From: a virus
Taxonomy: Duplodnaviria; Heunggongvirae; Uroviricota; Caudoviricetes
Virus record (IMG/VR): IMGVR_UViG_3300025936_000018
Reading direction: 5' to 3' (one strand)
DNA: 64,000 nt
Shown: positions 4,271-40,791 of the stretch, one piece after another
Numbering within the stretch: the stretch's first letter is position 1
How the letters are laid out: each line of letters starts with the position of its first letter
Notes under the pieces: model-generated
Databases searched by the model: none
What the model was told of the DNA's origin: nothing
The model's input: only the letters and a program-made list of their open reading frames with translations
Position numbers and translations under genes: made by a program

Positions 4271-4665
4271 ATCGCTCCGATCTCTCGCGCGTTGGCGTAC
4301 GCGGCGTGACTGTCGTAGACGAGTCGGCCGCGCTGACTCGCGGTTAGCTGCGCGACGAGCATCGCGAGAGCGAGGCCGGCAGCCGAGCGCGCGTCTCTGA
4401 CCGCTTCGTCGGCGAGCCATTGCTCGTAGTTGTCGTCCTCGCAGATCGCGTGGAGGAAGTTGATCTCCTCGTACAGTCCCTCCGCGATCGCGTGGTCGAT
4501 CACGCGCTGAACTTCGGCAACGGTCGGTCGTCTGCCGGCGAGTTTGCCGTCGGTCACGTCACGATCCGCGCCGTGCTCGAGCCTCGATGTCGGCGAGCTC
4601 CTGCCGGCCGCGGTTCGTCGTCCACCGATCCGGCTGCCCCGGGATCGGCGTGTCGTCCGTCTCAC
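4264..4665 (-). CDS. hypothetical protein (start uncertain)
   Basis: C-terminal 100 aa have balanced composition (VIDHAIAEGLYEEINFLHAICEDDNYEQWLADEA...). Confidence 0.35.
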   Translation of the reverse strand: MRRTTRRSRGSRIGGRRTAAGRSSPTSRLEHGADRDVTDGKLAGRRPTVAEVQRVIDHAIAEGLYEEINFLHAICEDDNYEQWLADEAVRDARSAAGLALAMLVAQLTASQRGRLVYDSHAAYANAREIGAIR

Positions 4666-4849
4666 GCACGCGGACGTGGTCCATCTCGCGCGCCTGCGTG
4701 TCGTCGACGCCGCCGAGCATCTGCCGACGGTGGCTCTTGATCACCGACCGGATCGTGCCGCGCGGGACGACCTGCGCCTGCGTGCCGTTGACCACGCGCC
4801 CCTCGCGCGGCTCGCCGCCGCGCGCGCGCCGGAGGCCGAGCCTCATGAC
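4559..4849 (-). CDS. hypothetical protein
   Basis: Internal Met MRLGL...; ATGA overlap with the upstream membrane-protein gene at 4843-4849. Confidence 0.25.
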   Translation of the reverse strand, partial: VMRLGLRRARGGEPREGRVVNGTQAQVVPRGTIRSVIKSHRRQMLGGVDDTQAREMDHVRVRETDDTPIPGQPDRWTTNRGRQELADIEARARRGS

Positions 4850-5043
4850 CCCCGCCGATCTAATGACCGCCGCCGGCCTATCTCGAAGATGCTGAACACG
4901 AGATCGGCGGCAAGGATCCCAATCGCGATTCCCGTGAGCAGCGCTCCTCCTGCGTCGTGGCGCGCGAGCGAGTCGGACGCGCCCGCGACGAAGAGAGCCA
5001 TCAGCGCGACAGTGAAAATCAGCCGGATAGCCTCCCGCTTCAC
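4843..5043 (-). CDS. small membrane protein
   Basis: 66 aa with two hydrophobic helices (LIFTVALMALFVAGA; LLTGIAIGILAADLVF). Confidence 0.35.
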   Translation of the reverse strand: MKREAIRLIFTVALMALFVAGASDSLARHDAGGALLTGIAIGILAADLVFSIFEIGRRRSLDRRGS

Positions 5044-5293
5044 GCCGGCGCACCGACCGAGAGCGCTTCCCCGTCAAGCGGGAACGCGGAGCCGGCGCCT
5101 TCGACGTCGAGCCGGAGGACGAGCTCGTCGCCGACGAGCTCCGCAGCGATGACCGTGCCGACCGGCTCGCCGGAGTCGCCTCGGCGATCGACCAGCGGCT
5201 TGCCGACCGCTTCAGCTGCGTGCTCCGCCGTCCACCTGTAACCGCGCGGCGACGGAAGCCTGACTTCGACCTCGATGCTCACCGGCACGATCA
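5040..5293 (-). CDS. hypothetical protein
   Basis: MIVPVSIEVEV... start region carries TAGTATGATCGTGCC, a copy of the leaderless-promoter-like motif. True start may be GTG 5281. Confidence 0.35.
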
Positions 5294-5502
5294 TACTAGA
5301 GCGAGACGACGAGGCCGTCCTCCCCGAAGGTCGAACGGCCTCAGTCAGTCGCGAGTGCGGACTGCGCCTCATGATCCCGGGAGGCCAGCGGTACCCGCCG
5401 AAGCGGTTACGTTGCCCGACCCGGTGATCCCGTGGACTGCGCCAGCCGCCCACGGTTTCGCTGGCTCGGCGGAGTGCCCCGCTGCTCGCGTCGCGCAGGC
5501 TA

Positions 5503-5682
5503 TCACGCGCGCTTTCGGTTCGCGCGCTTCCGCGTGACGACGTGCTCTCGCCCCTGCGGATCCTTGAACACCTTGCCCGGCTCGTTGCCGGACGAATGCT
5601 TGTGGCTCTTGCCAGCACTCGTCGGCGCCGTCGCCGGCGGCCCGAGTTTCCGCTTCTTGTGGGGAGACGACCACATGCCCAT
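5503..5682 (-). CDS. small basic (Lys/His-rich) protein
   Basis: MGMWSSPHKKRKLGPP...; high GC3; SD GAGGAGG 8 nt upstream of the ATG; below ORF-track cutoff when started at this ATG. Confidence 0.4.
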   Translation of the reverse strand: MGMWSSPHKKRKLGPPATAPTSAGKSHKHSSGNEPGKVFKDPQGREHVVTRKRANRKRA

Positions 5683-5730
5683 CGCGAACACCTCCTCTCG
5701 AGGCGTCGTCGGTGCAGGGCATGTCGCGTG

Positions 5731-6657
5731 TTAGGTCGTCATCACTCCTCCGGCGCGGAGAATAGCGTCAGCGCCCTCCGCGCGGAGGCGCTCGAGCATG
5801 TCCCTCGCAGACGACGGCGTGATGCCGGAGAGCCGCGCGAGCTCAGCCGGGAACGGCCAGTAGCCCTGCCGCTCGAGGTACTCGAGCGCGATGTCGCGCG
5901 ACGTCAGGCGCCGGCTGGGATCCGATGGGCGCGCGAGCGCGCGTCGCGCTTGGTGGACGGTGCTCGCGGTGCCGTGGATCTCGAAGCCGATGGAGTAGCC
6001 ACGCGCGCGCAGGCCTGTGTCGTTCATGCAGAGCCGGCAGCTCGAGCACGTCACGTCGTCGCGAGTCTGCGCCGGGCACGGCACGATGTCGGCGCCAGAG
6101 TGGGAATAACGCGACGCGTCGCGGAATCCGTCGACGACGAGCGATGTCGCGTAGCCGCGCGCGCGGGCGAGCTCGACTTGCTCGGCCGTCTCGCACGAAG
6201 CGAGCACCGAGACGCGACCCCACGATTCGCGGTCGACGAGCCGCCACGCGTGCGTGTACGTCCAGACGGTCCCGCCACCGCGATCCATGTAGCGCTCGGC
6301 GGCAGCGGCGACGATCCGCGCGGCTTCGTCGGTGCGGCAGTCGCCGACCGTGTGTAGCCGCATCGGTCGGCCTTCTATGGTTGAACCATAGAGCGCGTCG
6401 ATCGCCGCGGCTTCCTCGAGCGCAACGGTGTGAGGATCGGCGTGTGAATATTCAGCAGCTTCATTCAGCGGCTTCGTCACGCCGGTGTAGAGCCGCCCGT
6501 TCTCGGCGTAGCAGCCGCCGCCGTTGAAAAACACGCAGGAGCTCGGGCATGAAGCCTGCGCCGCGTAGGTCGTCGCGCAGTCGCCGATCTTGGCGTTGTT
6601 GCTCTTCGCGACCGCGATCGCCAGGATGCCCTGTTCGGTAGAGAGTCCGCGCTTCAT
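5731..6657 (-). CDS. Cys-cluster protein with C-terminal winged helix (SCPSSC...GGGCYAE motif)
   Basis: 308 aa; N-terminal Cys motif resembling the DUF5131 (Gp37/Gp68) GC..CYxE signature; a second cluster VPCPAQ...CSSCRLC; C-terminal wHTH (RDIALEYLERQGYWPFPAELARLSGITPSSARDMLERL). Confidence 0.55.
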   Translation of the reverse strand: MKRGLSTEQGILAIAVAKSNNAKIGDCATTYAAQASCPSSCVFFNGGGCYAENGRLYTGVTKPLNEAAEYSHADPHTVALEEAAAIDALYGSTIEGRPMRLHTVGDCRTDEAARIVAAAAERYMDRGGGTVWTYTHAWRLVDRESWGRVSVLASCETAEQVELARARGYATSLVVDGFRDASRYSHSGADIVPCPAQTRDDVTCSSCRLCMNDTGLRARGYSIGFEIHGTASTVHQARRALARPSDPSRRLTSRDIALEYLERQGYWPFPAELARLSGITPSSARDMLERLRAEGADAILRAGGVMTT

Positions 6658-7976
6658 CGGTCGAGCTCATGCTCGAGCGCGTCGGCTGCGGCGCGCATGC
6701 CCGCGATCAGCGCTCGCGCATAGGCATGCGGCAAAGATACTTCAACTCCCTTTTCGGGCGATGTCTCGTGAATATTTTCGTGAATATTCCGCACCCCGTT
6801 TTCGCGCTCTCGCGCCTCGAACGCGTGCGCGGCGTCGCGGATCTTCTCGGCGAGCGCGCGCGACTGGTCGATGGCCTGCTCCGCCTTCGGCTCGTTGCCG
6901 TCGAAGCGCGCCTGCTCCGCGACCCTCTGGCCATCGTTCTCGATCTCGTCGGCGGCCATGTACGCCTCTTCCGGCGTGGCGTACGTGAGACCGGTCCCGC
7001 GCACGCGTACGCGCTTCGCCGGCGCGGCCGCTGGCTTGAGCGGTACGCCGCCGCGCGTCGGCCGCGGGAAGCCGGCCGCCTCGATCGCGTTCGCCCACGA
7101 GCCGAACCGCGCCTTCACGGTCGACGTCGTCGGGTAGCCCTCTATGTGGCGAGCCCACTCCGTCGATGTCGGCGGCTCGCCGTACTCGCGGCGCCAGCGC
7201 TGGATCGCGTCGATGATCTCGGCCTTTTCCCACGCGCGCCGGCGCGCTTGCTCGTTCTCGGGGCGGGACGGCTCCTCGCCGACCTCTGAAGCCGGCGGAG
7301 CCGAGACGGAAACCGAGGCAACCCCGCCCGGCCCTTCTGCATCCGCCATCGGTTCCCGCCCCGATTCGTGCCCGGGAAGCGCGTAGACGCCGCGCTCGAC
7401 TCGGACGATCTTCCCCGACTTGACGTGCGGCAGCAGCCAGCCGCCGATGTTCTCGCTCGAGTAGCCGACTAGCGCCGCGAGATCCGCGAGCCGTTGCGGG
7501 CCCAGCTCGAGCGCAGCCATGACTTCCTTGAGCAGCTGGCCGCGCGCGCGGTGCGGCCGGCGCTCGGCCGGCGCGCTCGAGGACTGATCCGGAACTGATC
7601 CAGAACTGAGCTCGCCGCTCTCTTCCGGATCATCGAGCTCGTCATCCTGCTCGAGCACGTCGTCGACGTCGAGCAGCGCTTCGATGTCGATCTCGGGCTC
7701 GACCTCGCGGAGAGGCTCGCCGGCGTCCATCCGATCCAGGAGCGCGCGCCCGTCGACAGCGCCGGCGCTCACGCCTGCCGCCAGCGCCGGACATGCACGG
7801 CTCGTTGGACCGCCTGGATAGTGCGGTACCGGCTCGAGATCAGCCTCGCAGCCGCAGCCAGAACACGTCTCGACCGTCTCGCCGTGATCGCGACGCCGAT
7901 CGACGTTCGCGACCGATGACCGGTAGTCGATGAAGTTCGGCTGCCACCGCTCGACGTCGCCGCCGGTGAGACCCAC
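6654..7976 (-). CDS. protein with zinc ribbon, winged helix and homing-endonuclease-associated repeat
   Basis: 440 aa; ETCSGCGC ribbon; wHTH (VMAALELGPQRLADLAALVGYSSENIGGWLLPHVKSGKIVRV); EWARHIEGYPTTSTVKARFGSWANAIEAAGF resembles an HNH-associated repeat. ATGA coupling to the downstream gene. Confidence 0.5.
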   Translation of the reverse strand: MGLTGGDVERWQPNFIDYRSSVANVDRRRDHGETVETCSGCGCEADLEPVPHYPGGPTSRACPALAAGVSAGAVDGRALLDRMDAGEPLREVEPEIDIEALLDVDDVLEQDDELDDPEESGELSSGSVPDQSSSAPAERRPHRARGQLLKEVMAALELGPQRLADLAALVGYSSENIGGWLLPHVKSGKIVRVERGVYALPGHESGREPMADAEGPGGVASVSVSAPPASEVGEEPSRPENEQARRRAWEKAEIIDAIQRWRREYGEPPTSTEWARHIEGYPTTSTVKARFGSWANAIEAAGFPRPTRGGVPLKPAAAPAKRVRVRGTGLTYATPEEAYMAADEIENDGQRVAEQARFDGNEPKAEQAIDQSRALAEKIRDAAHAFEARERENGVRNIHENIHETSPEKGVEVSLPHAYARALIAGMRAAADALEHELDR

Positions 7977-12351: not shown

Positions 12352-13734
12352 TCAGAAGCCGGACGCGAAGCGGTCGTGCTGCGTCTTGATTCGGCCCTTC
12401 GCCGAGACGACGCGCATCGGCTTCGGCGTGTGCCCCTCGACGAGCTCGGTCGCGGCCCACACCATCGCGTCCATCCGATCCGGCGACCATCCCGAGTCGG
12501 GCGTCCAGTTGCGCTGCTGCGACTCGAGCAGCTCGTACTCGTTCTCGTCGCCGCCCTCCGGGATCACATGGTGGAACCGCCCCTGCTCGTAGAGTGCCGC
12601 GATCGGCTCCGCCCGGGCAGCCTTCCCACGCGACGCCGTCATCTTCTTGACCGTGATCCGGTCGGAGACCTCGAGCGCGGCCGCGGCGACCTTGATGTTC
12701 GAGACGACGAGATCGCCGCCGAAGTTCGTCTCGCCGACGATCTTGTCGGCGCCGAACTCGATCGCGGCGTTCACAGCGCGCTTGCCCCAGCCGTCCGGCG
12801 ACAGCTTGCACGACCGATCGGCGATCACGTAGTAGTCGCCGTCAACGCCCTTGCCGACGATGACGATGCCCTGCTCGTCGTTGCCGTCCTCGTCGCCGCC
12901 TGACGGGTCGACGCCTTCGATCACGCGCACGAAGTCGGGCGCGCTCGCCACGGAGATGCGGCAGTTCTGGATCGTCTCGAACGTCCACAGCGCGCCCTCG
13001 ACGTCCTCGATGTACTCGCCGAGGAGCTCCTGCCGCTCGAGCCGCGTGCCCTTGTACCGCGCAAGCAGACGCTCGCGCTGCCGCGCCGGCAGGTACGGGT
13101 TGTCGTGGATCGACGCGCGCGTCAGCGCCGTGTCCGACGCGGTCATCAGCTGCTTGAGGAACGGTCGCGTCTTCGGCGTCGTCGACGCGACGATGTGCGG
13201 GTGCGTGCCCATGCGGAGGCCGAGCTCCATGTTCTCCCACGCCTCCTTGAGATTGCGCCACGCCGCGAGCTCTTCGCACCAGTAGATGTGCCGGTTGCCG
13301 CCGGCGCGGAGCCGCTCGACGTCCTCCTTCGTGTACGCGCCGAACAGCTTCGCCTCGGAGCCGTTCGGCCAGACGACGTGCGTGCCGCCGGCGCGCGACC
13401 GCAGCTTCAGGAGCGGGTTGTGCGCCATCAGGCCCGACGCGCCGTAGACGCACGCCTCGGCCGCGTCGCCGAGCGTCGGCGCGATGATGCCGCCGCGCGC
13501 GCCCGGGTTGCGGCGCATGAACCGATCGAGGTAGCTCGCGCACGAGTCGGTCTTGCCGGCGCCGCGGCCGGCGAGCGTCAGCCAGAGGTACCAGTCGCCC
13601 TCGGGCGGGATCTGGTGCGGAAGCGGCCGCCATGGCGGCTTGCCCGTTGCGCGCGCGACCTCGAGCGCCCGGAGTTGCTCGAGCCGCTCGATCTTGAGCG
13701 CGAGCTCGGCGTCAGTCGTCGGGGCCGTCGTCAT
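12352..13734 (-). CDS. terL: terminase large subunit
   Basis: 460 aa; Walker A LAGRGAGKT; ATPase region (HIYWCEELAAW); C-terminal RNaseH-like nuclease (VIEGVDPSGG...GIVIVGKGVDGDYYVIAD). Confidence 0.9.
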   Translation of the reverse strand: MTTAPTTDAELALKIERLEQLRALEVARATGKPPWRPLPHQIPPEGDWYLWLTLAGRGAGKTDSCASYLDRFMRRNPGARGGIIAPTLGDAAEACVYGASGLMAHNPLLKLRSRAGGTHVVWPNGSEAKLFGAYTKEDVERLRAGGNRHIYWCEELAAWRNLKEAWENMELGLRMGTHPHIVASTTPKTRPFLKQLMTASDTALTRASIHDNPYLPARQRERLLARYKGTRLERQELLGEYIEDVEGALWTFETIQNCRISVASAPDFVRVIEGVDPSGGDEDGNDEQGIVIVGKGVDGDYYVIADRSCKLSPDGWGKRAVNAAIEFGADKIVGETNFGGDLVVSNIKVAAAALEVSDRITVKKMTASRGKAARAEPIAALYEQGRFHHVIPEGGDENEYELLESQQRNWTPDSGWSPDRMDAMVWAATELVEGHTPKPMRVVSAKGRIKTQHDRFASGF

Positions 13735-14338
13735 CGCTGGCCGCTACTGCGACTGTCTGCCGCGCGCGCTGCTCGAGCTCGGCGGAGAGCTCGGCGATCT
13801 GGCGGTCGATCGAGTCGAGCCCCTCGACACGGATCGGTCCGCCCTCGGCGCCCGTCAGCTCGGCACGCTCCGACCAGCGATAGCGATCGGGGAAGTGCGC
13901 CTTGAGCCAGAAGATCATCAGCGTCGCGTTCGTCTCCGCTGACTCCGTGGTGGTCGTCTCTTCCTCCACCACGACGCCGCCCTTCATCTTCTTTTTCGTC
14001 ACGGTCTTCTTCACCGGGACGCCGGTCATGATCCACTGGTACGCGCGCCGCTCAACGGCGTCACGAGCGAGGTCGAGCGCGTCATTCCACGCGCGATCGA
14101 AGTCCGGGTCGGCGTCGCGGACGCGGTACACCTGCTTGCGGCCGATGCCGGCGATCCGGCATGCCGCGCTCACGTCCGGCAGCGAGCTCAGCGAAGCAAG
14201 GAACGTGCGCTGCCACGGACGTTCCCAGCCGCGATCGGCCGGCGCCGGTAGAGCCTCCTCGCCCTCGAGCATGTCCGCGATCGACGGCTCCGGCTGCTCG
14301 ACGATGGGGAACTGCTGCATGAGCGGATGCGTGTTCAC
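13712..14338 (-). CDS. terS: terminase small subunit (HTH)
   Basis: HTH TFLASLSSLPDVSAACRIAGIGRKQVYRVRDADPDFDRAWNDAL typical of terS; immediately upstream of terL. GTG 14338 overlaps the methyltransferase stop (GTGA); alternative ATG at 14320. Confidence 0.65.
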   Translation of the reverse strand: MNTHPLMQQFPIVEQPEPSIADMLEGEEALPAPADRGWERPWQRTFLASLSSLPDVSAACRIAGIGRKQVYRVRDADPDFDRAWNDALDLARDAVERRAYQWIMTGVPVKKTVTKKKMKGGVVVEEETTTTESAETNATLMIFWLKAHFPDRYRWSERAELTGAEGGPIRVEGLDSIDRQIAELSAELEQRARQTVAVAASDDDGPDD

Positions 14339-15644
14339 GAGAGCACTCCCGCCGGCGCGAGGTCGGGCCGGTCGACGTAGTCCGCGTAACGCTGCCGGAT
14401 GACGTCGCAGTAGCGCGGGTCGATCTCCATCGAGAAGCACCGCCGGCCGTCGGTCTCCGCGGCGATCAGCGTCGTGCCGCTGCCGGCGAACGGATCCACG
14501 ATCAGCTCGCCCGGGTGCGTAACCGCTTCGATGTACGCCGACGGCAGCCCCACCGGGAACACCGCCGGGTGATCGCCCTGCGACGGACCCTTATGGCTCG
14601 GAAGCGTCAGCACAGACCCAAGACGCTTGAGATCGGCAACCGGATACGTGCGCGGCGGCGTGAACTCCCCGCTCGGCAACCGCTGCGCACGCGTCGTCGT
14701 CTTGCCGGCGTTCTTCGTCGGCAGCACCCGGTTCGACTCGCGCGGCTTCTCGCCGAACACGAACACCCACTCGTGCCACGGCGGGAACATCATCCGCTGC
14801 CCCGCCATGCTCGTTGCGTCCTCGCGGTTCCAGACGTTCCACGCGAGCAGCTTCAAGCCGGCGGCGCGCGCAGCCGCGATGAACGTCTGCCAGTGCTCCA
14901 CGATCTCCGAGTCGCGGAAGATGAGACCGAGGTTCACCGCCGCCAGATCGCATGGCCAGACGGCGAAGAACTCCGCCAGCCGGCCCGGGTCGAGATCGCC
15001 CTCGCCGTTGTAGTCGCGCAGATCGAGATACGGCGGTGACGTGAACAGCAACGCCGCGCTCTCGCCGTCCATCAGCACGTCGACGTCCTTCGCGAGCGTC
15101 GAGTCGCCGCACATCAGCCGATGCTCGCCGAGCTCGTACACCTCTCCGCGCTTCGAGACCGGCTCCGCCGGCGCGACCGGTACCGCGTCCGGGTCGCGCG
15201 GATTGTCGAGATGGTGCAGCGCCGCCACCGTCGCACGCAGCTCATCAAGGTCGTCGTCGTCGTAGCCGGTGCCGACGCGATCATCGAGCGCCTCGAGTTG
15301 AGCCAGCAGCAGCGAATCGTCCGTATAGCCGAGCTCGGCCGTGCGGTTGTCGGCGATGAGGAACGCGCGCGCCTTCTCCTCGTCGTCCAGCACCTCCGCA
15401 GCGTCGGCGACCGCGACATGCGTCCAGCCGAGCCCTCGAGCGGCGAGAACGATGTGGTGGCCGGCCGTGATGAGCGAGCCGGACGTGACGACCTGCTTCA
15501 GCTGGCCGAACCGCTTGAGCGACTCGCTGATCGCTCCGACGTCGCCCTGGCGCGGATTGCCGGGGAACGGGTCCAGGCTGTCGATCGGGACGAGACTGCC
15601 GCGGAACGCGGTCAGGCCGTTCCAGACGATGACGGCTTCTTTTA
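14335..15644 (-). CDS. ParB-like nuclease domain fused to an N6-adenine/N4-cytosine DNA methyltransferase (start non-canonical)
   Basis: Methyltransferase motifs TSPPY (motif IV) and DPFAGSGTT (motif I). Upstream in-frame ParB-N domain (PGNPRQGDVGAISESLKRFGQ...AGHHIVLAARGLGWTHVAV) is open back to 15704 with no ATG/GTG/TTG before 15393. SD GAGGA sits 6 nt before an ATA codon at 15644. Confidence 0.75.
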
Positions 15645-15711
15645 TGGCTGTGTCCTCGTGTGTCCCACGGCCCGAAGAGTCTACCGCCGCGTTTCGGTAT
15701 GACCGTAGTAG

Positions 15712-15888
15712 CTAGCCGGCGGCCTTCTCCATCGCGCGCTTCGTCCAGAGAAGCGACTGCTCGAGGTTCGTTGCGATGAGCGCCTTCATGCGGAGGTCGC
15801 CGTCGAACTGCTCGTCGCTGAGATCGTTGACTGCGAAGAGCGCGGCTTCGATGTCGTCGTGGAGCTCCTGGAGCGTCTTGGGATCCAT
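15712..15888 (-). CDS. small hypothetical protein (58 aa)
   Basis: MDPKTLQELHDDIEAALFAVNDLSDEQ...; SD GGAGGA 6 nt upstream; not in the ORF track. Confidence 0.35.
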   Translation of the reverse strand: MDPKTLQELHDDIEAALFAVNDLSDEQFDGDLRMKALIATNLEQSLLWTKRAMEKAAG

Positions 15889-15938
15889 CGGTCGGTCCTC
15901 CCGGGGTCGTGGTGCGGATTCGCGGCGATCCTATCCCT

Positions 15939-16029
15939 CGTATGGGCCATAGGTAGCTTCTCGGCTGCGGAGCGGTTCGCTAGGCCGGCCCACACTGGCT
16001 TGAGCCGCTCCGCACCTATGGGTCATAGG
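15939..16029. promoter_or_regulatory. Nested dyad-symmetric element (candidate cos/pac site or operator cluster)
   Basis: Two 15-bp palindromes CGTATGGGCCATAGG (15939-15953) and CCTATGGGTCATAGG (16015-16029) flank a perfect 10-bp inverted repeat TGCGGAGCGG/CCGCTCCGCA (15965-15974/16003-16012) centred on GGCCGGCC (15983-15990). Non-coding, between the HNH gene and terS. Confidence 0.5.
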
Positions 16030-16034
16030 TCGGT

Positions 16035-16341
16035 CTACGGTGTCATCTCGCCGTTCGTGATCCAGCCGTGCCAGTTGCCGTACGTGCCGGAGTCGTCGCC
16101 GGCGTTGATCGACGGGTGGACGGTCAGATTCGGCGGCTCGCCGGAGGCATCCCAGAGATCGTGCGGCGGATCCGTTGAGCGAGTCGTTGTCGCCCACAGA
16201 CCGGCGCCGTTCGGGAGGACGACGCACCACGCTTCGCGGCCGTCGCCGTCGAACTCGGGCGCGCGGAAGCAGTCGCCGTGGAGCGCTGCGTAGCCGCGGT
16301 AGCCGCCTTCCGGGGTCGGAACGATGCGGAGCGGGATCATC
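16035..16341 (-). CDS. hypothetical protein
   Basis: Start MIPLRIV at 16341 (ATGA overlap); Trp/Gly-rich C-terminus. Confidence 0.4.
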
Positions 16342-16639
16342 GGCGCGGGAGGTTGTAGAAGGTCCAGAGCCCCGTCCATTCCTCATGGATGCGGTCGCGG
16401 AGAAGGTGCGGCGGCTGCGGGATCGGGTTGCCGAGCGCGATGTCGGCCTCTCGGTTGGTGTACCGCGTGAACTCGACGCGTTCCATGACGAGCCGGTAGC
16501 CGGTGCGTGTCTCGACGATCCCGACGATCTCGTACGCGCGCAGCAGCTCGTACGGGTCGGAGCCGCTCGAGACCGTCTGCGCGGCTATGTCGCCGAGCTC
16601 CGGCGGAGCGTTATCGCGCGGCCAGTCCGGGAACCGCAT
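16338..16639 (-). CDS. hypothetical protein
   Basis: Internal start MRFPDWPRDN...; balanced composition. Confidence 0.4.
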
Positions 16640-16680
16640 CGTCGTGGTCGTGCCGAGCGGCCGATGGTGGCCCGGGCGTC

Positions 16681-16932
16681 TCATCTCACGGCGTACGTCG
16701 GGTCGATTGGGCGAGGCGGCGGCGGCGGTCGCTTGATCTCCCACGGATCGGGCCCGAGCTCGCACGTCGCCTCGAGCGCGCGAATGAGTGTCCGGCAGGC
16801 CTCGTAGGCGCGTCGCCGGCGCCACGGCCAGATCGACTCGCGGCCGCGGAGCTCGCGTCGGAGCCGTGGCTCGTGGAACGCGAGGAACTGCGCTGCGGAC
16901 CTCGGCATGGGCGGAATCGGCTGGTGGCCCAT
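16681..16932 (-). CDS. hypothetical protein
   Basis: 83-aa ORF. Confidence 0.3.
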   Translation of the reverse strand: MGHQPIPPMPRSAAQFLAFHEPRLRRELRGRESIWPWRRRRAYEACRTLIRALEATCELGPDPWEIKRPPPPPRPIDPTYAVR

Positions 16933-16960: not shown

Positions 16961-17332
16961 CTAGGCGGCTCGAGAGAGCGATCGCGCGCGCCGCTCGAGC
17001 GCGTCGCGGCGCCGGCGCTCTTCGCACGCGCGCCGGCCGGACTCGTACGGATGGCGGTGAGGGCAGCGCGTCGGCGCCTCATCGAGGATCGAGACGATCA
17101 GCCGGCGGACGGCCTCGAGCGTCGGATGGTGCGACGCGCACGCCGTGATGCAGTTCTCCTCGTCGAGCTCGAGGTCCGGCCGCTCGGAGCGCGGAATGAC
17201 GTGGTGGACGTGGAGGATGTCCGAGCAGCGGCCGCCGAGGAGCCGAGCCACCGTGCACCGGTGGCCGTCACGAACGCGGACGCGTTCGGCGAGCTCGAGC
17301 CAAGCTGCGGAGTTGTAGAACGGATCTGTCAC
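16961..17332 (-). CDS. HNH endonuclease
   Basis: HRCTVARLLGGRC...LHVHHVIPRS...EENCITACASHH, canonical HNH motif. Sits upstream of terS/terL, the typical position of the packaging-associated HNH. Confidence 0.8.
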   Translation of the reverse strand: MTDPFYNSAAWLELAERVRVRDGHRCTVARLLGGRCSDILHVHHVIPRSERPDLELDEENCITACASHHPTLEAVRRLIVSILDEAPTRCPHRHPYESGRRACEERRRRDALERRARSLSRAA

Positions 17333-17419: not shown

Positions 17420-19255
17420 TTACGCGAAGATCGACAACTGCTGCGTGCGCTGCGCGACGAGCTCGGCGTACTCCTGGTTGAGCTCGATGCCGACGCAGCG
17501 CCGGCCCATCTTCCGCGCGACGAGCGCGGTCGTGCCGGAGCCCATGAACGGGTCGAGAACCGTGCACGGCACCGGTGTCAGCGGAGCCGTCTCCGGGATC
17601 TCGACGCGCTCGAGCCATTCGTTCTCGATCCACCGCTCGAGCAGCTCCGGCGGGATCGGTCGCGCACCCGACGCGTCCGTGCGGACGTAGTGCGCGAACG
17701 CCTCAGCGCCAGCCTCGTCGCGCATCTCTTCCGCGAACGCCGACTGGCGCAGCTGGCGCGCGTACTCCGCCTGCTCGTACCGCGTGATCGGCCGCGTGCC
17801 CTCGCCGTCGCCGCGCGGCCGACCGAGGCCCTTCCGGCCGGTCTCCATCGTGGGATCGGCGCCATCGCTCTCGCCGAGCGGGGTCATGATCGGCGTCAGG
17901 TCGACGCCGGCGCACGCGCACGACGGCCGCCATCCCTTGAACACAGCCGTCGAGTAGACGCCGCCCTCGTTGCGGTGGAGCGACTTCGACGACTGCGCGT
18001 TGCTCGTCTGGCTGTGCGTGTTCGCCCAGCCGCGCGTGTCGTCATCCGCCGCATACTTCGACGGATTGTTCGTCTCGATGATGCGCTGCCACGGAGCTCC
18101 GCACTGCGGACAGCAGCCGTACTCGGATGTGCCGGCGGCGATGCAGCGGCGCGGCAACTCCTCCGGGAAGGTCGCAAAGTGGGCGTCGGCGAACTGCTGC
18201 GTCGCAACCGTCCAGACAGAACGCGCGTTGCGGGTCAGCGGCGACAGACTCGCCCCGTTCGTCGCTTCGATGTCATCCGTCAGACCGTGCTGCTCATCGA
18301 GCTCGGCCGCGCGTCGCTGCTGCGGATGCTTCGCCGCCGCGCGACCCTGCATCTGCTGCGCGTGCGGCCCGTTCTTCGGATTCCCGTTCGGACCCCACCA
18401 CGTCGCCGGCTCCGCGATCGCCGCGGCGTCGTAGAAGTAGCGCTGGCTCTTCGTCAGCAGGAACACGTACTCGTGCGACTTCGTCGGCCGGTCGGTCACG
18501 GACTCCGGCATTGGATTCGACTTCCGCCAGATCAGGTCGCGATCTTGGCTATAGCGCCAGACGCGTTCCTCGAGGACGTGGCCGCAGCCGCAGGGACAGT
18601 AGAGCTCGACCTCTTCGATGACGTCGCTGCGCAGGTACCAGCCGTCATCCTGGAGCGCGAATGCGAGCCGCCACGGGATCCCGATCAGGTCCTTCCTCTT
18701 GAACCCTGCCGGCAGCGACCGGGGCTCCTTCGACTCCGCGATCTCCCTGCCGCGACGCGAGAGATGGAACGAGCCGTGCTGCCCGGGCGCGCGCGTGTCG
18801 GCCGCGTAGCTGCCACCGTCGTATTGCGCGTAGCTATCCCCGATGTTGAGCCAGCATGTGCCGTCCGCGCGCAGGACACGCCGCACCTCGCGGAAAATCT
18901 CCACCACCTTCTCGACGTACTCGTCCGGCGACTGTTCGAGCCCGAGCTGCTGGTCGATCCGCGTGGCGCCGCAGAGTCCGCAAATCGCGCGCGCGCCGTT
19001 GTGTTGATGGCTTTGCTTCGCTCCTTCCAAACCGGATGTCGCGATGTTTCGGTCGATGTCGCCAGCCTTGGGATGCGGATGCTGACAGTCGGGATCGCCG
19101 CCTTCCCATGTGCCTGTCCCGTAGTCGCGCAGGCCCCAGTACGGCGGAGACGTGACGCAACAGTGCACGCTCGCGTCGGCGATCTCGCGCAGTTGCTCGA
19201 GCGCGTCTCCGACGTAGAGCGTGAGGTCGAGATCGGCGAGGAAGGGCTCGCTCAC
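17420..19255 (-). CDS. DNA methyltransferase (N6-adenine/N4-cytosine, beta-class) with large Zn-ribbon insertion
   Basis: LYVGDALEQL...SVHCCVTSPPYWGLRDY (motif IV) ... VLDPFMGSGTTALVA (motif I); CPCGCGH and CCPQCG ribbons between them. GTG start 19255 overlaps the upstream stop (GTGA). Confidence 0.85.
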   Translation of the reverse strand: MSEPFLADLDLTLYVGDALEQLREIADASVHCCVTSPPYWGLRDYGTGTWEGGDPDCQHPHPKAGDIDRNIATSGLEGAKQSHQHNGARAICGLCGATRIDQQLGLEQSPDEYVEKVVEIFREVRRVLRADGTCWLNIGDSYAQYDGGSYAADTRAPGQHGSFHLSRRGREIAESKEPRSLPAGFKRKDLIGIPWRLAFALQDDGWYLRSDVIEEVELYCPCGCGHVLEERVWRYSQDRDLIWRKSNPMPESVTDRPTKSHEYVFLLTKSQRYFYDAAAIAEPATWWGPNGNPKNGPHAQQMQGRAAAKHPQQRRAAELDEQHGLTDDIEATNGASLSPLTRNARSVWTVATQQFADAHFATFPEELPRRCIAAGTSEYGCCPQCGAPWQRIIETNNPSKYAADDDTRGWANTHSQTSNAQSSKSLHRNEGGVYSTAVFKGWRPSCACAGVDLTPIMTPLGESDGADPTMETGRKGLGRPRGDGEGTRPITRYEQAEYARQLRQSAFAEEMRDEAGAEAFAHYVRTDASGARPIPPELLERWIENEWLERVEIPETAPLTPVPCTVLDPFMGSGTTALVARKMGRRCVGIELNQEYAELVAQRTQQLSIFA

Positions 19256-19617
19256 GCGCTGGCGCCCAGCTCGAGCAGAGCTCGCTCGTACCGGTGCGCG
19301 TGGTGCGGCTTGATGTGGCCGCCATGCTCGCCGCGGCAACGCGCGAGGTTGTCGCGAAGATCGGCGATCTTGACCGCGATCGCGACCGGATCGCCGCTCG
19401 CCTTGACGCGCGCGATGTAGTCGGAGTAGACCTCGCCGGGTTGCCGCGTCAGCACCTCGACGTGAGAGCGGATCTCGGCCGGCACTCCATCGGTTCCGTC
19501 CTCGATGTGGTCGTGGAAGAGAGCAACCATCGCCTCAACCGAACCGGGCTCGAATCCGCTCGCGACTCGCCGGCAGTGTTCAACCGCTGCGGTCACTGAC
19601 TTCTCCATTCGGTACAA
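19252..19617 (-). CDS. HD-domain small alarmone hydrolase-like protein
   Basis: ALFHDHIEDG (HD...ED) and VKIADLRDNLA resemble the RelA/SpoT-type HD hydrolase core; 121 aa; translationally coupled to the downstream methyltransferase. Confidence 0.5.
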   Translation of the reverse strand: MYRMEKSVTAAVEHCRRVASGFEPGSVEAMVALFHDHIEDGTDGVPAEIRSHVEVLTRQPGEVYSDYIARVKASGDPVAIAVKIADLRDNLARCRGEHGGHIKPHHAHRYERALLELGASA

Positions 19618-21760: not shown

Positions 21761-22131
21761 CAGCGTGACTCGCTCTCTCGATCGCGGCGCGCGTCGCCGA
21801 GGTCGCGGAGATGCTCCGCGTAGAGCGGCGACTTCGGATCGAATGGGTCGAGCAGTTCGGCCTCGCCGGGCAAGCAGTCGAAGTCGGCGCGTCCCGGGCC
21901 GGCCTCGTACTCGCGCAGCGCGGCCGCGCGTTCGCGCGCCCACTCGCCAATCTGCGTTTCGAGCAGGCCGAGAAGGTCGGCGGCTTCGGCGTTCGTCATG
22001 CGCAGCCGCAGCTTCGGGAGCTCGCCGAGCTCGAGCAACTCGAACGGGTTCTCAGCCTCGAGCAGCGCCGGCACAAAGTCCAGAACGACGTGCCGGCCTT
22101 CGTCCGAGTCGACATGGAACAACGACGTCAT
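21760..22131 (-). CDS. hypothetical protein
   Basis: Internal start MTSLFHVDSDEGR...; ATGA overlap with the C5-methyltransferase stop. Confidence 0.45.
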   Translation of the reverse strand: MTSLFHVDSDEGRHVVLDFVPALLEAENPFELLELGELPKLRLRMTNAEAADLLGLLETQIGEWARERAAALREYEAGPGRADFDCLPGEAELLDPFDPKSPLYAEHLRDLGDARRDRESESR

Positions 22132-23942
22132 GGCGCGACCGCCAGAGTCGGGATGAGCGCGGCACCCAGCATCGCCGCGACGGGCGAGCTGACAGCGTTG
22201 CCGATCATCTTGACCCGGTTCTCGTTCGAGATTTCGCGCATCTGGCCGCGATGGTTGCGCGTCTTCGCGTCGAGACGGTACGGCCGCCCGTCCGCGTGCT
22301 CGTGCATCTGCTGCGCACGAAGGAGCTCCGGCCACTGAAGCATTCGGAACAGGCATGCGTCGATCTCGTCGTCGGAGACGATGAGCGCTTCGCGGCTCGT
22401 CGTGGTCACGGTCCGGGGCGTGACCATGAGCGACTGCGAATCGCGGCCCTTGACGACGCCTGCTGGCTCGTCGAGCTCGCGGACGTGCCCGGGGTTGCCG
22501 TTGTAGACGAGCAGGCCGTGGTGGTAGCCGCCGCCGGTCACCGTCGCGGCCGGCTCGTCGGCGCTGTCAACGCCCCCGTGGTTTCGCAGCGTGACGAGCG
22601 CGAGCTCGCCGTGCCCGGCGATCGTGCGTGTCGGCTCGTCGAGATGCGACGGGAGGCGATCGCCCGGCTTGCCGCGGTTGACCTGCACCAGCATGTGCTG
22701 CGCCGGCGCCGTCGTCACGGTGCTCGCCGGCTCATCGAGGCCACCGCCGACGGCATGCTCGCGGTTCGGGATCAGGAGACCGATCTCGCGATCGTGCGCG
22801 GTGATCGTCTGCATTGGCTCCTGCGCGACGCGCGGCGACGCGCCTTGCCCGCCGTAGCGCATGACGACGGCCATCTGCGACGTGCACACGACGGTGCGGA
22901 GGGGATCGTCGACGCTCCACACGCGGACGCCGGGACGACGCTCGAAGAGGTTGCCGCCCACCTGCACGGTGATCGGCTCCGTCGTACGGAGACGCTCGAG
23001 CCCGGCACGGATCCGCTCGATCGTGTTCTTCGCGAGCGGCTTCTTACGGCCGCCGATCGACGCCGCTGGAAGCGCCCAGTCGATGATCGTCCGGGAGCCC
23101 GTGACCGCCGGCGCGACGGGATGCGTGCACGTCGGGCACGTGTAGACGTACTGCTGCCCGTACCGGCCCCACTCGAACAGGCCGGGCCGGTCGCGGATGC
23201 TGCCCTTCGACGCCTTCTTCCACGTCTGCACGCCGCGCACGACGATCTCGCAGCTCGAGCACCATGACATCGGGCAGAAGTCGAGGTTCGGCTCGGCGAG
23301 TCCGTCACGCCAGAACACGACGTACATCCGGTCGCGGGACTGCGGCGTCGGCAGCGCGAACTGCGAGTTGAAGTAGAGGACGCGGCCCTGGTAGCCGAGC
23401 TCGATGATCGCCCGGTACCACTGGTCGAAGTCGATCCCGCACGAGCAGCGGAACTTCCACTGCCGCGCCTTGCGGTCGTAGTAGCGGCCGTGTCCGTGCT
23501 CTTCGGCTTCGCACCACAGCCGCGCCTCGACGACGTTCTCGACGATGATCGCGTCGTACCGGTGGTGCTCCGTGAAGCGGACGATGTCGCCGAACGTCGC
23601 GCGCGAGCGCTGCGCGTCGGGGTCGTAGTCGCGCGGCCCGCGGCAGTACGCGTGGTGCGTGCACTCGGGCGACGCCCAGAGCAGCGGCGTCCGCCGGAAC
23701 CGCGCGGCCGGGATGAGCTCGACGTCGTGGACGTCATGGTCGGCGTCCGGGAAGTTCGCGTTGTGCGCTTCGACCGCGAGGTCCCAGTGGTTGAGCGCCT
23801 GCGTCACGCGGATCAGCGGCCGGCCGCATGCTGAGCACGCGACGCTCTCGAGGCCAAGCGACGAGCCGCCGGCGCCGGCGAACATGTCGGTCGCCTCGAG
23901 CTCGCCCCATCCAGTGCACGTAGGGCACATTGCGGCGCTCAT
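22128..23942 (-). CDS. DNA cytosine-5 methyltransferase
   Basis: FAGAGG (motif I), SPECTHH (motif IV, PC), ENV (motif VI), QFALPTPQSRDRMYVV (motif VIII), IGNAV (motif X). Start ATG 23942 overlaps the upstream stop. Confidence 0.9.
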   Translation of the reverse strand: MSAAMCPTCTGWGELEATDMFAGAGGSSLGLESVACSACGRPLIRVTQALNHWDLAVEAHNANFPDADHDVHDVELIPAARFRRTPLLWASPECTHHAYCRGPRDYDPDAQRSRATFGDIVRFTEHHRYDAIIVENVVEARLWCEAEEHGHGRYYDRKARQWKFRCSCGIDFDQWYRAIIELGYQGRVLYFNSQFALPTPQSRDRMYVVFWRDGLAEPNLDFCPMSWCSSCEIVVRGVQTWKKASKGSIRDRPGLFEWGRYGQQYVYTCPTCTHPVAPAVTGSRTIIDWALPAASIGGRKKPLAKNTIERIRAGLERLRTTEPITVQVGGNLFERRPGVRVWSVDDPLRTVVCTSQMAVVMRYGGQGASPRVAQEPMQTITAHDREIGLLIPNREHAVGGGLDEPASTVTTAPAQHMLVQVNRGKPGDRLPSHLDEPTRTIAGHGELALVTLRNHGGVDSADEPAATVTGGGYHHGLLVYNGNPGHVRELDEPAGVVKGRDSQSLMVTPRTVTTTSREALIVSDDEIDACLFRMLQWPELLRAQQMHEHADGRPYRLDAKTRNHRGQMREISNENRVKMIGNAVSSPVAAMLGAALIPTLAVAP

Positions 23943-24205
23943 GGCGTCTCTCTCCAGAACGGATTGACGACCCACTCGCCGACGACCGCGTCGAGCAGAC
24001 CGAACGCGCCGGAGTCGCCGAGCTCGCCGCCGATCTCCTTCGCGTCGGCGTGCAGCTGGCCGATGGCGACACCGACCGCCTCGAAGTCCGCGCACGTCGC
24101 GAGCACGTCGAGCGATCCGCCGCGGCGGCCGTAGAGCCGGTAGCGCTCTTCGGCTGTCCGCGGGTAGAGCTCGTCGCTGTCGATCACGTAGGCCGCCGCG
24201 CTCAT
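23939..24205 (-). CDS. hypothetical protein
   Basis: 88-aa acidic ORF. Confidence 0.4.
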   Translation of the reverse strand: MSAAAYVIDSDELYPRTAEERYRLYGRRGGSLDVLATCADFEAVGVAIGQLHADAKEIGGELGDSGAFGLLDAVVGEWVVNPFWRETP

Positions 24206-27945: not shown

Positions 27946-28421
27946 AGCCCCAACTCCGCGACGGTGTTGCGGAGGATCTCGGCGAGTTGCTCGCCGATCC
28001 CGAATCGCTCGAAGTTGAACTCGAGTCCGGACTCGAACGTCGCGACCTTCTCGGGGTCGTCGGTGCGTTGCTTGCCGCGCTCGCTCGCTGCGCGCCAGTC
28101 GCAGAGCATCTCCATGACGGCCATGAGGCTCATGCCGTTGACGCCGTTCGGGAAGTGCTGAGCGTGGTGGTCGTTCTCCGCGAAGTGGTGATCGAGCGCG
28201 GCGCCGAGCTCGTCTGTCGCTGCCTTGTACTCCGGACTTCCGTAGACGAGCTCGGCGAGTTTCGGCGTGGCGATGTCGAATGCCTCGACCTCGGGCGAGA
28301 CGAGTTTGCTCGCGTCGTGCACGCTCGCGCGTTCCTCGAGATTCGCGATCGCCGCGCGCATGAAGAACCGCACGCGTTCGATGTGCTCGAGCGTCTCCGG
28401 CCGAGAGTCGTAGTCGCTCAT
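27942..28421 (-). CDS. His-rich metal-binding (HD-like) protein
   Basis: HDASKL ... LDHHFAENDHHAQHF. Confidence 0.4.
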   Translation of the reverse strand: MSDYDSRPETLEHIERVRFFMRAAIANLEERASVHDASKLVSPEVEAFDIATPKLAELVYGSPEYKAATDELGAALDHHFAENDHHAQHFPNGVNGMSLMAVMEMLCDWRAASERGKQRTDDPEKVATFESGLEFNFERFGIGEQLAEILRNTVAELGL

Positions 28422-28734: not shown

Positions 28735-29568
28735 TTACGCCGTCTGGCTCTCGACGGCCATCTTGAACTGCTCGAACACGCCGGCTGTGACCATGTAGAA
28801 GCCGTCGGACAGCGTTGCGTCCTTCACGACCGTCCGTGCCGACTCGATCACTTTCTTCTCGCCGGAGGCCTTCCTGACCGGCTCTGACGCGTCCTCGAGC
28901 GCGCGTAGCGCCTCGGGCAGCCTCGCCGCGAGTTGCTCCACGATCTCGCCGGCGTCGCCCTCGCCAGCGTCCAGGGCCGCGCTGACGAGGTCGAGCGTCT
29001 CGCGGACGACCGAGAGGTTCCGCGCCGCGTCGATCGTCTCACCGGGCCCGAGCTCGCCGCCGCCGGCCGCGCCGGCGCTGCTCGAGCTCGGCTGTCGCGG
29101 CGGCCGCGCCGCCAGCTGCTCCGCCTCGCGCAGCGCCTCGCGCAGCTGCTCCTTCGACCAGCCGGAGCGGACCGCGACCTCGAGCCACTCGCTCTGAGCG
29201 GCAGGCTCGAGCGCCGCGACCGTCTCGTGATGCGAGAACGAGAGCTCGGCGCGTCGGCGCTCCGGAGCGACGCGCTCGCAGACCGAGACGATGATCATCA
29301 GCCGGCCGATCGAGAGACCCGTCGCATCGACGGCCTGCGCGTACTTCTCGCCGTGCCGCGCCTCCGAGAAGCGGATCAAGTCGCCCGTCCACCAGCTGCC
29401 GGCGTCGCGCATCCCGCGGATCCGATCGAGAACCTCGGCAACGCGTTCGACTGTCATCTCCGGGTCGGTCACGCTCAGACTGTTTGGCGTCAGAGCGATT
29501 CCGTCAGGCGCGCGCCACGGCAGCAAATCTAACGCCGCGGCGTTAGATTCGGTCTCGGTCTCAGTCAT
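28735..29568 (-). CDS. hypothetical protein
   Basis: 277 aa; SD GAGGAGG 7 nt upstream of the ATG. Confidence 0.45.
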   Translation of the reverse strand: MTETETESNAAALDLLPWRAPDGIALTPNSLSVTDPEMTVERVAEVLDRIRGMRDAGSWWTGDLIRFSEARHGEKYAQAVDATGLSIGRLMIIVSVCERVAPERRRAELSFSHHETVAALEPAAQSEWLEVAVRSGWSKEQLREALREAEQLAARPPRQPSSSSAGAAGGGELGPGETIDAARNLSVVRETLDLVSAALDAGEGDAGEIVEQLAARLPEALRALEDASEPVRKASGEKKVIESARTVVKDATLSDGFYMVTAGVFEQFKMAVESQTA

Positions 29569-35774: not shown

Positions 35775-36112
35775 AGCCGGCCGCCGTCCCAGAGCGGGAT
35801 CGGCGTCTTCACCTCGATCGGCGTGACGCCGTGCTGGTGCGCGAGAAACGCGGTGATCTTCTCCCACGCCTTCGTCTCGTGCCGGTAGCGAACTGCGCTC
35901 GTCACGCCCATGCCGACGCCGACGTACTGGTCTGAGAGCTCGAGCACGGTAGCGTTCGCGAGCGGCCCGGAGTACTGCGTCACGCACACCTTGACGGTTC
36001 CGCCAGCGAGAAGCGCGGACGCGTTGAGAGCGTCGAGCTCGAGCGCCGGGCAGTGCGAGTCCGGTTTGCCGGCTCCGACCTGTGGTCCGAGGAGTACGAC
36101 GCGATCGGCCAT
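35771..36112 (-). CDS. hypothetical protein
   Basis: 113 aa; LLGPQVGAGKP Gly-rich. Confidence 0.45.
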   Translation of the reverse strand: MADRVVLLGPQVGAGKPDSHCPALELDALNASALLAGGTVKVCVTQYSGPLANATVLELSDQYVGVGMGVTSAVRYRHETKAWEKITAFLAHQHGVTPIEVKTPIPLWDGGRL

Positions 36113-40266: not shown

Positions 40267-40275
40267 CCCCCCCCC
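40267..40275. repeat. C9/G9 homopolymer tract in the methyltransferase 5' region
   Basis: ccccccccc on the plus strand; the only homopolymer of 9 or more noticed in the window. Confidence 0.9.
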
Positions 40276-40671: not shown

Positions 40672-40791
40672 CGTCTTGACCTCCCATTCGTCCTGCTCGA
40701 CGCCCCCGCCTCGGGAGACCCTCCGGGTAGAGCTGGGAGAAGAGGGATTGAGACGGAGACGCCGAGCACGACGAACGAGATGTTCAACGCT

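Follow-up and report, generated by a model that had tools for sequence, protein, structure and literature searches.

The question raised by this locus is whether a symmetric, non-coding element, lying between an HNH endonuclease gene and the terminase genes of a tailed virus, marks the place at which DNA packaging begins, or whether it serves in the control of the genes around it. An earlier note, made from the letters of the sequence, had proposed a cos or pac site used with an HNH partner, and had listed a repressor/operator array and a replication origin as alternatives. The window (the whole stretch of 64,000 nt that was analysed) has a GC content of 67.5%, and nearly all of its plausible genes are on the minus strand; tail genes fill the region from 45 to 64 kb. 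Proteins adjoining the element are on record from metagenomic contigs of 52 kb and ~96.3 kb (96,331 bp), and the 52-kb contig (L031) carries a 20-kb stretch that is 100% identical to the window, so that the source can be recognised as an uncultured siphovirus of ~96 kb with a high-GC host, here termed an actinophage. No near isolate was found, the closest isolated phage by its large terminase (TerL) being Streptomyces phage mu1/6 at only 43%, and a TerL search of GTDB genomes gave identities of at most 44%. Searches of IMG/VR with the ParB-N/methyltransferase fusion (ParB-MTase) and with the DUF6527 protein returned distant loci or none.

The gene order read by the earlier note (HNH, small genes, the element, a small gene, ParB-MTase, terS, terL) agrees with the HMM matches (Table 1). 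The HNH gene is ~2.5 kb upstream of terS with five ORFs in between, while the element is ~1.5 kb from terS and separated from it by two genes, the 58-aa ORF and ParB-MTase. The gap that holds the element is 146 bp long, as previously described, and is bounded by the DUF6527 stop codon and the start codon (ATG) of the 58-aa ORF, the two genes being on the minus strand. Only one other non-coding stretch of any size is found between HNH and terL.

Table 1. Coordinates, in the window, of the genes, sequence features and other dyads discussed in the text.
Feature	Position	Strand	Details
N6/N4 methyltransferase	17420-19339	minus	HMM scan
HNH endonuclease	16961-17332	minus	PF01844; HMM scan
DUF6527 (BubE-like) ORF	16035-16379	minus	directly upstream of the element; stand-alone gene
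Indel cassette	15710-16336	minus	DUF6527 gene, element and 58-aa gene; ~630 bp; relative to L033, blastn boundaries
Non-coding gap	15889-16034		146 bp
Element	15939-16029		91 bp
Palindrome A	16015-16029		CCTATGGGTCATAGG; minus-strand reading CCTATGACCCATAGG; one mismatch to CCTATGG-C-CCATAGG; starts 5 nt past the DUF6527 stop
GC-rich inner inverted repeat	15966-16014		arms 15966-15978 and 16002-16014; perfect 10 bp TGCGGAGCGG (15966-15975) / CCGCTCCGCA (16005-16014); loop 23-29 nt
Octamer GGCCGGCC	15983-15990		
Palindrome B	15939-15953		CGTATGGGCCATAGG; minus-strand reading CCTATGGCCCATACG; one mismatch to the consensus CCTATGG-C-CCATAGG
-10-like hexamer TAGGAT	15928-15933	minus	resembles actinobacterial -10 (TAnnnT); weak, inferred promoter element of the 58-aa ORF
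Shine-Dalgarno-like GGGAGGA	15896-15902	minus	7 nt upstream of the ATG at 15888
58-aa ORF	15712-15888	minus	directly downstream of the element; Acb2/Tad1 hairpin domain-like
Conserved non-coding block	15634-15711	minus	ACTACSGTCATACCGAA-N6-RCGGTAGACT ... ACACCCATAAAAGA; TAGACT at 15678-15683
ParB-N/methyltransferase fusion (ParB-MTase)	low end 14335	minus	HMM scan
terS	13712-14440	minus	HMM scan
TerL	12352-13734	minus	Terminase_6N/6C; HMM scan
Related 19-bp perfect palindrome TCTATGGTTGAACCATAGA	6374-6392		in frame inside the DUF7227-wHTH ORF (5731-6657, minus); same arms, 5-nt centre
Perfect 14-bp inverted repeat	28202-28257		other dyad
Perfect 24-bp palindrome	29526-29549		other dyad
~30-bp-stem hairpin	~40680-40780	minus	other dyad; fold z -5.2

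The symmetry of the element is real and non-random. Two 15-bp near-palindromes, 76 bp apart from start to start, flank a perfect 10-bp inverted repeat, and all of these were confirmed. Each outer site agrees with a shared consensus at 14 of 15 positions, and the arms of the inner repeat can be extended to 13 bp at 92% identity. When up to three mismatches are allowed, the 15-mer motif matches the window only at palindromes A and B; this gives a count of four, because each palindromic site counts on both strands, against 0.56 expected, and none of 100 shuffles reached four. The direct repeat between the two sites is limited to the 14–15 bp of the palindrome itself, and the dyads are AT-rich within this high-GC DNA. 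Other details of the original description needed revision. The element spans 91 rather than 95 bp, and the arms of the inner repeat are 29 rather than 28 nt apart. The octamer GGCCGGCC, placed by the earlier note at the exact centre, has its midpoint at 15986.5, against 15990 for the middle of the inner repeat and 15984 for that of the outer pair, so that it is displaced by 2.5–3.5 nt from either centre of symmetry. It also occurs eight times in the window against 3.6 expected and is, for that reason, not a meaningful third layer; as a core of the element it was dropped. Since the window contains 88 inverted repeats of at least 10 bp, the inner repeat taken alone is unremarkable. Nor does the statement hold that nothing comparable occurs elsewhere in the 64 kb, as other strong dyads are present (Table 1, last four rows).

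The small gene downstream of the element belongs to a family of which all ten members match PF24729 (best E 7e-6), with the window's own copy falling below threshold at E 0.013. Comparison of the family profile with the PDB gave 'Acb2 homolog 43' at E 0.033 and Tad1 at ~0.3, both of them weak matches, and homologs of the ORF are 61–80% identical to it. Because of this similarity to the Acb2/Tad1 hairpin domain, the 58-aa product is considered a candidate anti-defence sponge. On the other side, the DUF6527 gene probably starts at the ATG at 16340, overlapping the stop codon of the preceding ORF; the 114-aa form is absent from records because the gene is called from this later ATG. BubE, a name that is also the Pfam label, is a component of bacterial ubiquitination-like operons (bioRxiv 10.1101/2024.11.21.623953).

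Comparison with related contigs places both genes, and the element between them, within a single indel. Homology with contig L033 ends at position 16337, at the stop of the ORF that precedes DUF6527, and restarts at 15709, just past the stop of the 58-aa ORF, so that the DUF6527 gene, the element and the 58-aa gene together make up an insertion or deletion of ~630 bp. At the corresponding position L033 has 118 bp with a single, perfect 19-bp palindrome, CCTATGGTTCAACCATAGG, composed of 7-nt CCTATGG arms around a 5-nt centre. It lies 11 nt past the stop of the homologous upstream gene and ~160 nt before ParB-MTase, i.e., between that same upstream gene and a conserved non-coding block that is found directly upstream of ParB-MTase and is common to L033, L034 and L037. 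At the same spot L037 has a different, AT-rich palindrome, ATTACGTAAT, which is unable to form a hairpin, and L034 has a different gene of 145 aa. L032 has a DUF6527 gene of 76% identity, with another gene coming straight after it. At three loci that carry the 58-aa gene (L107-L109), homology with the window is limited to the CDS, and no such element was seen upstream of the 58-aa homologs there or in IMG/VR locus L124. From these gene arrangements, the DUF6527 and 58-aa genes are judged to be independently mobile.

These comparisons bear directly on packaging. The proposal that packaging begins with recognition or cutting of the element by terminase, alone or together with the HNH protein, has in its favour the position of the element between the HNH gene and terS/terL, the synteny of HNH with ParB-MTase-terS-terL that is retained in L034, L036 and L040/L041, and the dyad symmetry, which some cos nicking sites also show. 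It is nonetheless very improbable. A search with TerS found relatives at 55–72% protein identity, with nucleotide identities to the window of 70–83% across terS/terL and ParB-MTase, and the element was present in none of the eight TerS-relative contigs that were fetched (L033, L034, L035, L036, L037, L040 and L041 among them). Absence from related phages, which the earlier note had named, along with genome ends mapping elsewhere, as evidence against its own proposal, is what was found in the close terS/terL relatives. The cos/pac reading is not supported, in view of this absence, of the location of the element within an accessory-gene indel two genes from terS, and of the lineage of the TerL, a Terminase_6N/6C protein. 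The RcGTA-like TerL group that includes mu1/6 is nested among headful packagers (PMC7947584). A related dyad occurs 9.6 kb away, whereas a cos site should be unique. The nearest isolate in SEA-PHAGES (the next match after mu1/6) has a record that begins at base 1 of terS, and under the SEA-PHAGES numbering convention this would indicate a circularly permuted genome. The available assemblies, namely the 52-kb L031 and the continuous window itself, run straight through the element, which is weak evidence against genome ends there; the 52-kb assembly ends at about window coordinate 39101, in ordinary coding DNA, and so gives no information on termini. The locus does resemble the HNH-assisted cos region of HK97-type phages in having an HNH gene upstream of terS/terL with dyad-symmetric, non-coding sequence between, but the TerL is not of the HK97 class, the HNH gene is separated from terS by the distance and the ORFs noted above, and the site is not conserved among relatives while related dyads are found elsewhere in the genome. 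With SPP1/P22-type pac systems it shares a TerL lineage that is probably headful, in which case some pac signal must exist. Known pac sites, however, are within terS or right at it, in contrast to an element ~1.5 kb upstream, and even close terS relatives (55–72% aa identity) are without it. If phages of this family do have a late promoter or packaging signal between HNH and terS, the conserved block at 15634-15711 is a better candidate for it than the element, as it is for the promoter of the packaging operon.

Folding of the element lends some weight to another possibility, that of a strand-specific structured nucleic acid, in which all 91 nt form one long hairpin on the plus strand, antisense to all local genes. 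It could itself be an antisense RNA, form a stable hairpin closing the 5' or 3' terminus of such a transcript, or be bound as a ssDNA hairpin by a structure-specific protein. The element ranked first of 6391 sliding 100-nt windows in GC-corrected folding of the plus strand (z -4.7). Over a 116-nt region the plus strand outfolds the minus (MFE of -59.4 kcal/mol, shuffle z -4.2, against -46.7 kcal/mol, z -2.2), as it does for the inner hairpin (-38.6 kcal/mol, z -5.3, against -29.4 kcal/mol, z -2.3), and all five non-Watson-Crick pairs are G-U on the plus strand, with none on the minus, where they would be A-C, a count that is biased by the folding algorithm and reaches p ~0.06 at best. Against this, the Rfam 15 covariance models gave no match over the element at E values up to 10, the plus-strand promoter and terminator scan was null, and the structure occurs in no relative, L033 retaining only its single palindrome. 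Such a role is unlikely, if still worth keeping in mind. Across the whole window nothing in Rfam reached its gathering score, and a tRNA/tmRNA scan found none. The inner hairpin does not have the form of an intrinsic (rho-independent) terminator: a scan of 15300-16700 found no terminator, neither strand has a T-run after the hairpin that would supply a U-tract, and the loop is 23–29 nt, as against the short loop of such terminators. It is distinctly unlikely that the element is instead a relic of recombination or duplication with little or no function, in which an ancestral, L033-like 19-bp operator lost its central 4 bp and was duplicated when accessory genes were inserted, the GC-rich repeat being incidental. 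This would suit its location exactly at the junction of independently mobile genes, the one mismatch to the dyad consensus in each 15-mer, the restriction of the direct repeat to the palindrome, the ordinariness of the inner repeat among the 88 in the window, and the fact that the perfect 15-mer consensus is missing from high-GC contigs of IMG/VR, where its 14 matches are all on unrelated contigs of no more than 59% GC. It is harder to reconcile with a combined fold that is the extreme of the window, with the rarity with which phage genomes keep 146 bp of useless spacer, and with a downstream gene that requires either a promoter or read-through. The least probable of the explanations weighed, and one with little support, is that a miniature mobile element, i.e., a MITE/REPIN/PATE-like hairpin, landed in the phage. 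REPIN and PATE elements are extragenic long hairpins of ~90 nt with palindromic ends, and the element recalls them in its 91-bp size, long-hairpin shape, palindromic ends and extragenic position just past a stop codon. Unlike them it is single copy in the window, has no visible target-site duplication and no transposase or RAYT gene that could be seen, and is without copies in the collections searched. Neither the IMG/VR scan for the two-palindrome pattern (0 matches) nor blastn of a 1.1-kb segment and of the 116-nt element against 50,697 GenBank phages (an unrelated ParB match or nothing) recovered it, and strings of its sequence were met in the literature only as primers. The composite element is thus known from the source phage only. 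The replication origin suggested as an alternative finds no support, as iterons and an AT-rich tract are both lacking and the cumulative GC skew has its minimum near 41 kb. A reading of the 49-bp inner repeat as a serine-integrase attP-like site was set aside, no recombinase gene being nearby; the only integrase seen in a relative is of the tyrosine type and far downstream.

Dyads related to those of the element were found well beyond it. In the window itself, the 19-bp palindrome at 6374-6392 shares an exact 17-nt core with that of L033, for which the chance expectation, estimated from base composition, is ~4e-7, and sites with at most one mismatch per arm and a spacer of 0–9 nt number three, against 0.14 in shuffled sequence. 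A scan of IMG/VR for the 19-mer found a single high-GC contig, L049, which is otherwise an unrelated phage contig; there the 19-mer is intergenic, follows three 31-bp tandem repeats, and precedes a 70-aa ORF by 35 nt; a putative terS, recognised by eye (Pfam was null for that gene), is three genes downstream of the 19-mer. The 19-mer had no true match in GenBank phages. A wider scan of metagenomes gave 57 loci. Thirteen high-GC (64–71%) metagenomic contigs with a regulator gene, most of them labelled as soil samples, share one layout, in which the 19-mer occupies a divergent intergenic region, 20–30 nt upstream of a conserved 111-aa gene (33 nt in L078), with a gene of ~205 aa opposite across the palindrome. 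The 111-aa product begins MPNYG... and matches HTH_20/ArsR-type winged-helix models. On sequence grounds this has the classic layout of an autoregulated operator, and the 111-aa ArsR-type regulator with its 19-bp operator is an uncharacterised pair recognised in the present analysis. Two of the contigs (L105 and L078) also encode nearby an HD-domain protein that weakly matches dGTPase defence proteins (E 1e-8), and a protein with a weak likeness to DarG; on this account the locus may represent a defence island.

Taken with the arrangement of the gap, these dyads point to regulation. Most likely, the element is nothing out of the ordinary in kind, being an operator/promoter spacer, though its neighbourhood is unusual, and its best explanation in particular terms, which is tentative and a little short of an even chance, is as a predicted operator/promoter control region, with a stem-loop, for an accessory gene. 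The repressor/operator alternative raised earlier is in this respect favoured by the evidence, although it is not proven. Dyads of ~14–20 bp recur in the window, the two 15-bp sites within a gap at the junction of two genes that are found separately elsewhere, and the related 19-mer at 6374-6392. The CCTATGG arm is common to the palindrome at the equivalent position in L033, and operators would be expected to show just this, a dyad that differs from one related phage to the next at a fixed position. The 19-mer itself is found upstream of ArsR/HTH_20 genes in the 13 high-GC contigs, and in an intergenic position upstream of an ORF in the unrelated L049. Palindrome B by itself does not fold, and this, together with the AT-richness of the dyads in DNA of such high GC content, favours their recognition as double-stranded DNA. 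Counted from the ATG of the 58-aa ORF, palindrome B covers the positions 51–65 nt upstream, and 5 nt separate its end from the -10-like hexamer, after which comes the Shine-Dalgarno-like sequence.

It is proposed that the paired 15-bp dyads are putative binding sites of a dimeric helix-turn-helix regulator, encoded by either phage or host. Palindrome B would cover the spacer and -35 zone of the predicted promoter of the 58-aa gene, and because of this overlap its occupancy would gate both that gene and read-through into ParB-MTase-terS-terL. The GC-rich inner hairpin would insulate against, or terminate, transcription arriving from the HNH...DUF6527 genes or, alternatively, may stabilise the 3' end of that upstream transcript.

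Several observations weigh against an operator. The visible 64 kb of this ~96-kb phage yielded no cognate regulator: the window and the related loci were translated in six frames, and tblastn and profile HMM searches of these ORFs with the 111-aa wHTH protein and the product of the divergent gene returned no homolog, and PHROG/Pfam scans of ~50 window ORFs gave no clear regulator. Weak hints of regulators were noticed as a C-terminal wHTH on the DUF7227 protein and as an Arc-like N-terminal match on a RecT-like ORF (36112-37602). The half-sites are separated by 1 nt in the element as against 5 nt in the 19-mer, and a rigid dimer would not bind both geometries, so that the 15-mers may be decayed copies or the sites of a different protein. 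At 76 bp, or ~7.2 helical turns, the two palindromes are out of helical phase. Consensus scans (15300-16700) found neither a sigma-70 promoter nor a U-tract terminator, the -10 being a single hexamer; the composite occurs in the source phage only; and the markedly better fold of the antisense (plus) strand hints at strand-specific structure.

Among known systems, the element may be compared with the lambda operators OR and OL and with the Aca-bound repeats in anti-CRISPR promoters. It resembles these in having short, multi-copy dyads beside or over a promoter-like hexamer, immediately followed by a small gene whose product has an anti-defence-like domain, and in that related phages carry different dyads at the same place. 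It differs in that no regulator gene is adjacent, the promoter and the binding are predicted only, and the sites are 76 bp apart around a hairpin rather than adjacent. In an Aca-type locus, moreover, the aca HTH gene would follow the anti-defence gene, whereas here ParB-MTase follows. The likeness to the 19-bp operator of the 111-aa ArsR/HTH_20 regulator, TCTATGGTTSAACCATAGA, is one of sequence: the element shares its 5–7-nt arms (CTATGG / CCATAG), and the exact 19-mer is present at 6374-6392 in the window and at the equivalent intergenic position of L033. Yet the sites of the element have a 1-nt rather than a 5-nt centre and one mismatch each, and the visible 64 kb has no homolog of the regulator. 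In a more specific and decidedly improbable version of the operator explanation, the phage would carry its dyads as copies of the operator that a host ArsR-type regulator binds, or as sequences derived from it, serving in coupling or cross-talk.

For the annotation of phage genomes, the lesson is that a striking dyad found between HNH and terS needs conservation or mapped genome ends before it is labelled cos; in the phage family that carries the block at 15634-15711, that block is the better place to search for packaging or late-promoter signals. What deserves further work is the connection of the dyads with the operator that the high-GC contigs carry upstream of an ArsR-type regulator gene. 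Should the dyads derive from a host operator, the phage would couple its Acb2/Tad1-like gene and packaging operon to a host regulator or, alternatively, its DNA would be targeted by that regulator, or titrate it, as part of a sensing or immunity mechanism. The in-frame 19-mer at 6374-6392 would then represent functional cross-talk between a host regulon and the phage, and the same would cover the 19-mers upstream of packaging genes in two other phage contigs. If the element is an operator, as we favour, it would be the site from which a ~96-kb actinophage activates, ahead of the packaging operon, a gene that is a candidate for anti-defence, and would connect this phage with the recurrent 19-bp operator of an ArsR-type regulator that is itself uncharacterised.

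Directly upstream of the ParB-methyltransferase gene lies a non-coding block that is common to the window and to L033, L034 and L037, three contigs that carry related terS/terL genes and lack the symmetric spacer. Its conservation is about equal to, or above, that of the adjoining coding DNA, and either a late promoter or a packaging signal may reside here. The ParB-methyltransferase frame itself (15393-15714, minus strand) is open from 15711, and no ATG, GTG or TTG was found in it from there down to 15393. This first possible start lies well past the codons for the conserved N-terminus of ParB (IKEAxIVWNG...PGNPRQGD), and the TAG stop of the preceding 58-aa ORF (15712-15714) shares the frame. 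A start codon is likewise missing in L033, and is TTG or GTG in L034, L037 and L040 (another contig with related terminase genes). Its absence could reflect a non-canonical start, read-through or decay. In L037, the large terminase (4591-7032) is 813 aa long and has Hom_end/LAGLIDADG matches, a sign that an intein or a homing endonuclease has been inserted.

The two accessory genes flanking the spacer encode the 58-aa protein, homologs of which occur in varied phage contexts, and a stand-alone DUF6527 protein. As a pair, these genes resemble an islet for anti-defence or host interaction that has been inserted in front of the packaging genes. At least three methyltransferase genes of the window were confirmed by HMM (14335-15393, 17420-19339 and 22128-24095). 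Besides these, a methyltransferase-like reading frame with a DPPY motif, for which no in-frame start codon was found nearby, has a homopolymer of nine G at its 5' end (40267-40275, minus strand). This run may be phase-variable, or it may be an artefact of assembly.

Conserved, palindromic and flanking features of the window, and bacterial copies of the 19-bp palindrome
Feature	Position	Strand	Location or family
Non-coding block ACTACSGTCATACCGAA-N6-RCGGTAGACT ... ACACCCATAAAAGA	window 15634-15711	minus	directly upstream of ParB-methyltransferase
58-aa protein gene	window 15712-15888		Acb2/Tad1-hairpin-like family
Stand-alone DUF6527 (BubE-like) protein gene	window 16035-16379		flanks the spacer
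Perfect 19-bp palindrome TCTATGGTTGAACCATAGA	window 6374-6392		inside DUF7227 ORF (5731-6657, minus)
Same palindrome, bacterial module	L105:9783-9801; L096:6282-6300; L060:397-415; L078:7904-7922; nine more loci
Perfect 14-bp inverted repeat CGCCGAGCTCGTCT	window 28202-28215 / 28244-28257		spacer 28 nt
Perfect 24-bp palindrome AATCTAACGCCGCGGCGTTAGATT	window 29526-29549		codons 7-14 of ORF 28735-29568 (minus)
Long hairpin, stem ~30 bp	window ~40680-40780	minus	gap between ORFs 40784-40945 and 40291-40671

Several other dyads occur in the window. The long hairpin is its best minus-strand fold (z -5.2; -74 kcal/mol for 141 nt), and GGGAGG, the ribosome-binding site of the ORF downstream, falls within the 3' arm. 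By chance, about 0.004 perfect 24-bp palindromes would be expected per window.

The 19-bp palindrome is in frame with the DUF7227 ORF, where it encodes L-Y-G-S-T-I-E; the DUF7227 protein has a weak winged-helix match at its C-terminus. The 17-nt core of the palindrome is the same as in intergenic palindromes of L033 and of L049, an otherwise unrelated viral contig of 71% GC. Three tandem 31-bp repeats, GGGCCCCACTCGTGGCAGCTCAGGCCGCCGC, are also present in L049 (7560-7700, minus strand), about 65 nt upstream of its palindrome. A scan of metagenomic contigs for the 19-mer recovered it in L050, L052, L053, L065 and about 25 other loci, where it forms the centre of a palindrome of 31 bp, ATAGCCCCTATGGTTSAACCATAGGGGCTAT. 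This longer palindrome occupies one conserved locus in contigs of ~40-58% GC from gut and other metagenomes, and is probably an unrelated hairpin or operator of a different organism. A 19-bp palindrome identical to that of the window is found in 13 high-GC metagenomic contigs, most of them labelled as soil samples, where it precedes genes for ArsR-type regulators. There it belongs to a conserved bacterial module, with a 111-aa HTH_20/ArsR-like gene (MPNYG...) on one side and, on the other, a divergent gene of ~205 aa for which there was no Pfam match. In L105 and L078 the module is accompanied by genes for an HD-domain protein (with a weak PADLOC dGTPase match), a protein of 181 aa that weakly resembles DarG, and a protein of 365 aa, and with these neighbours it may constitute a regulated defence island.
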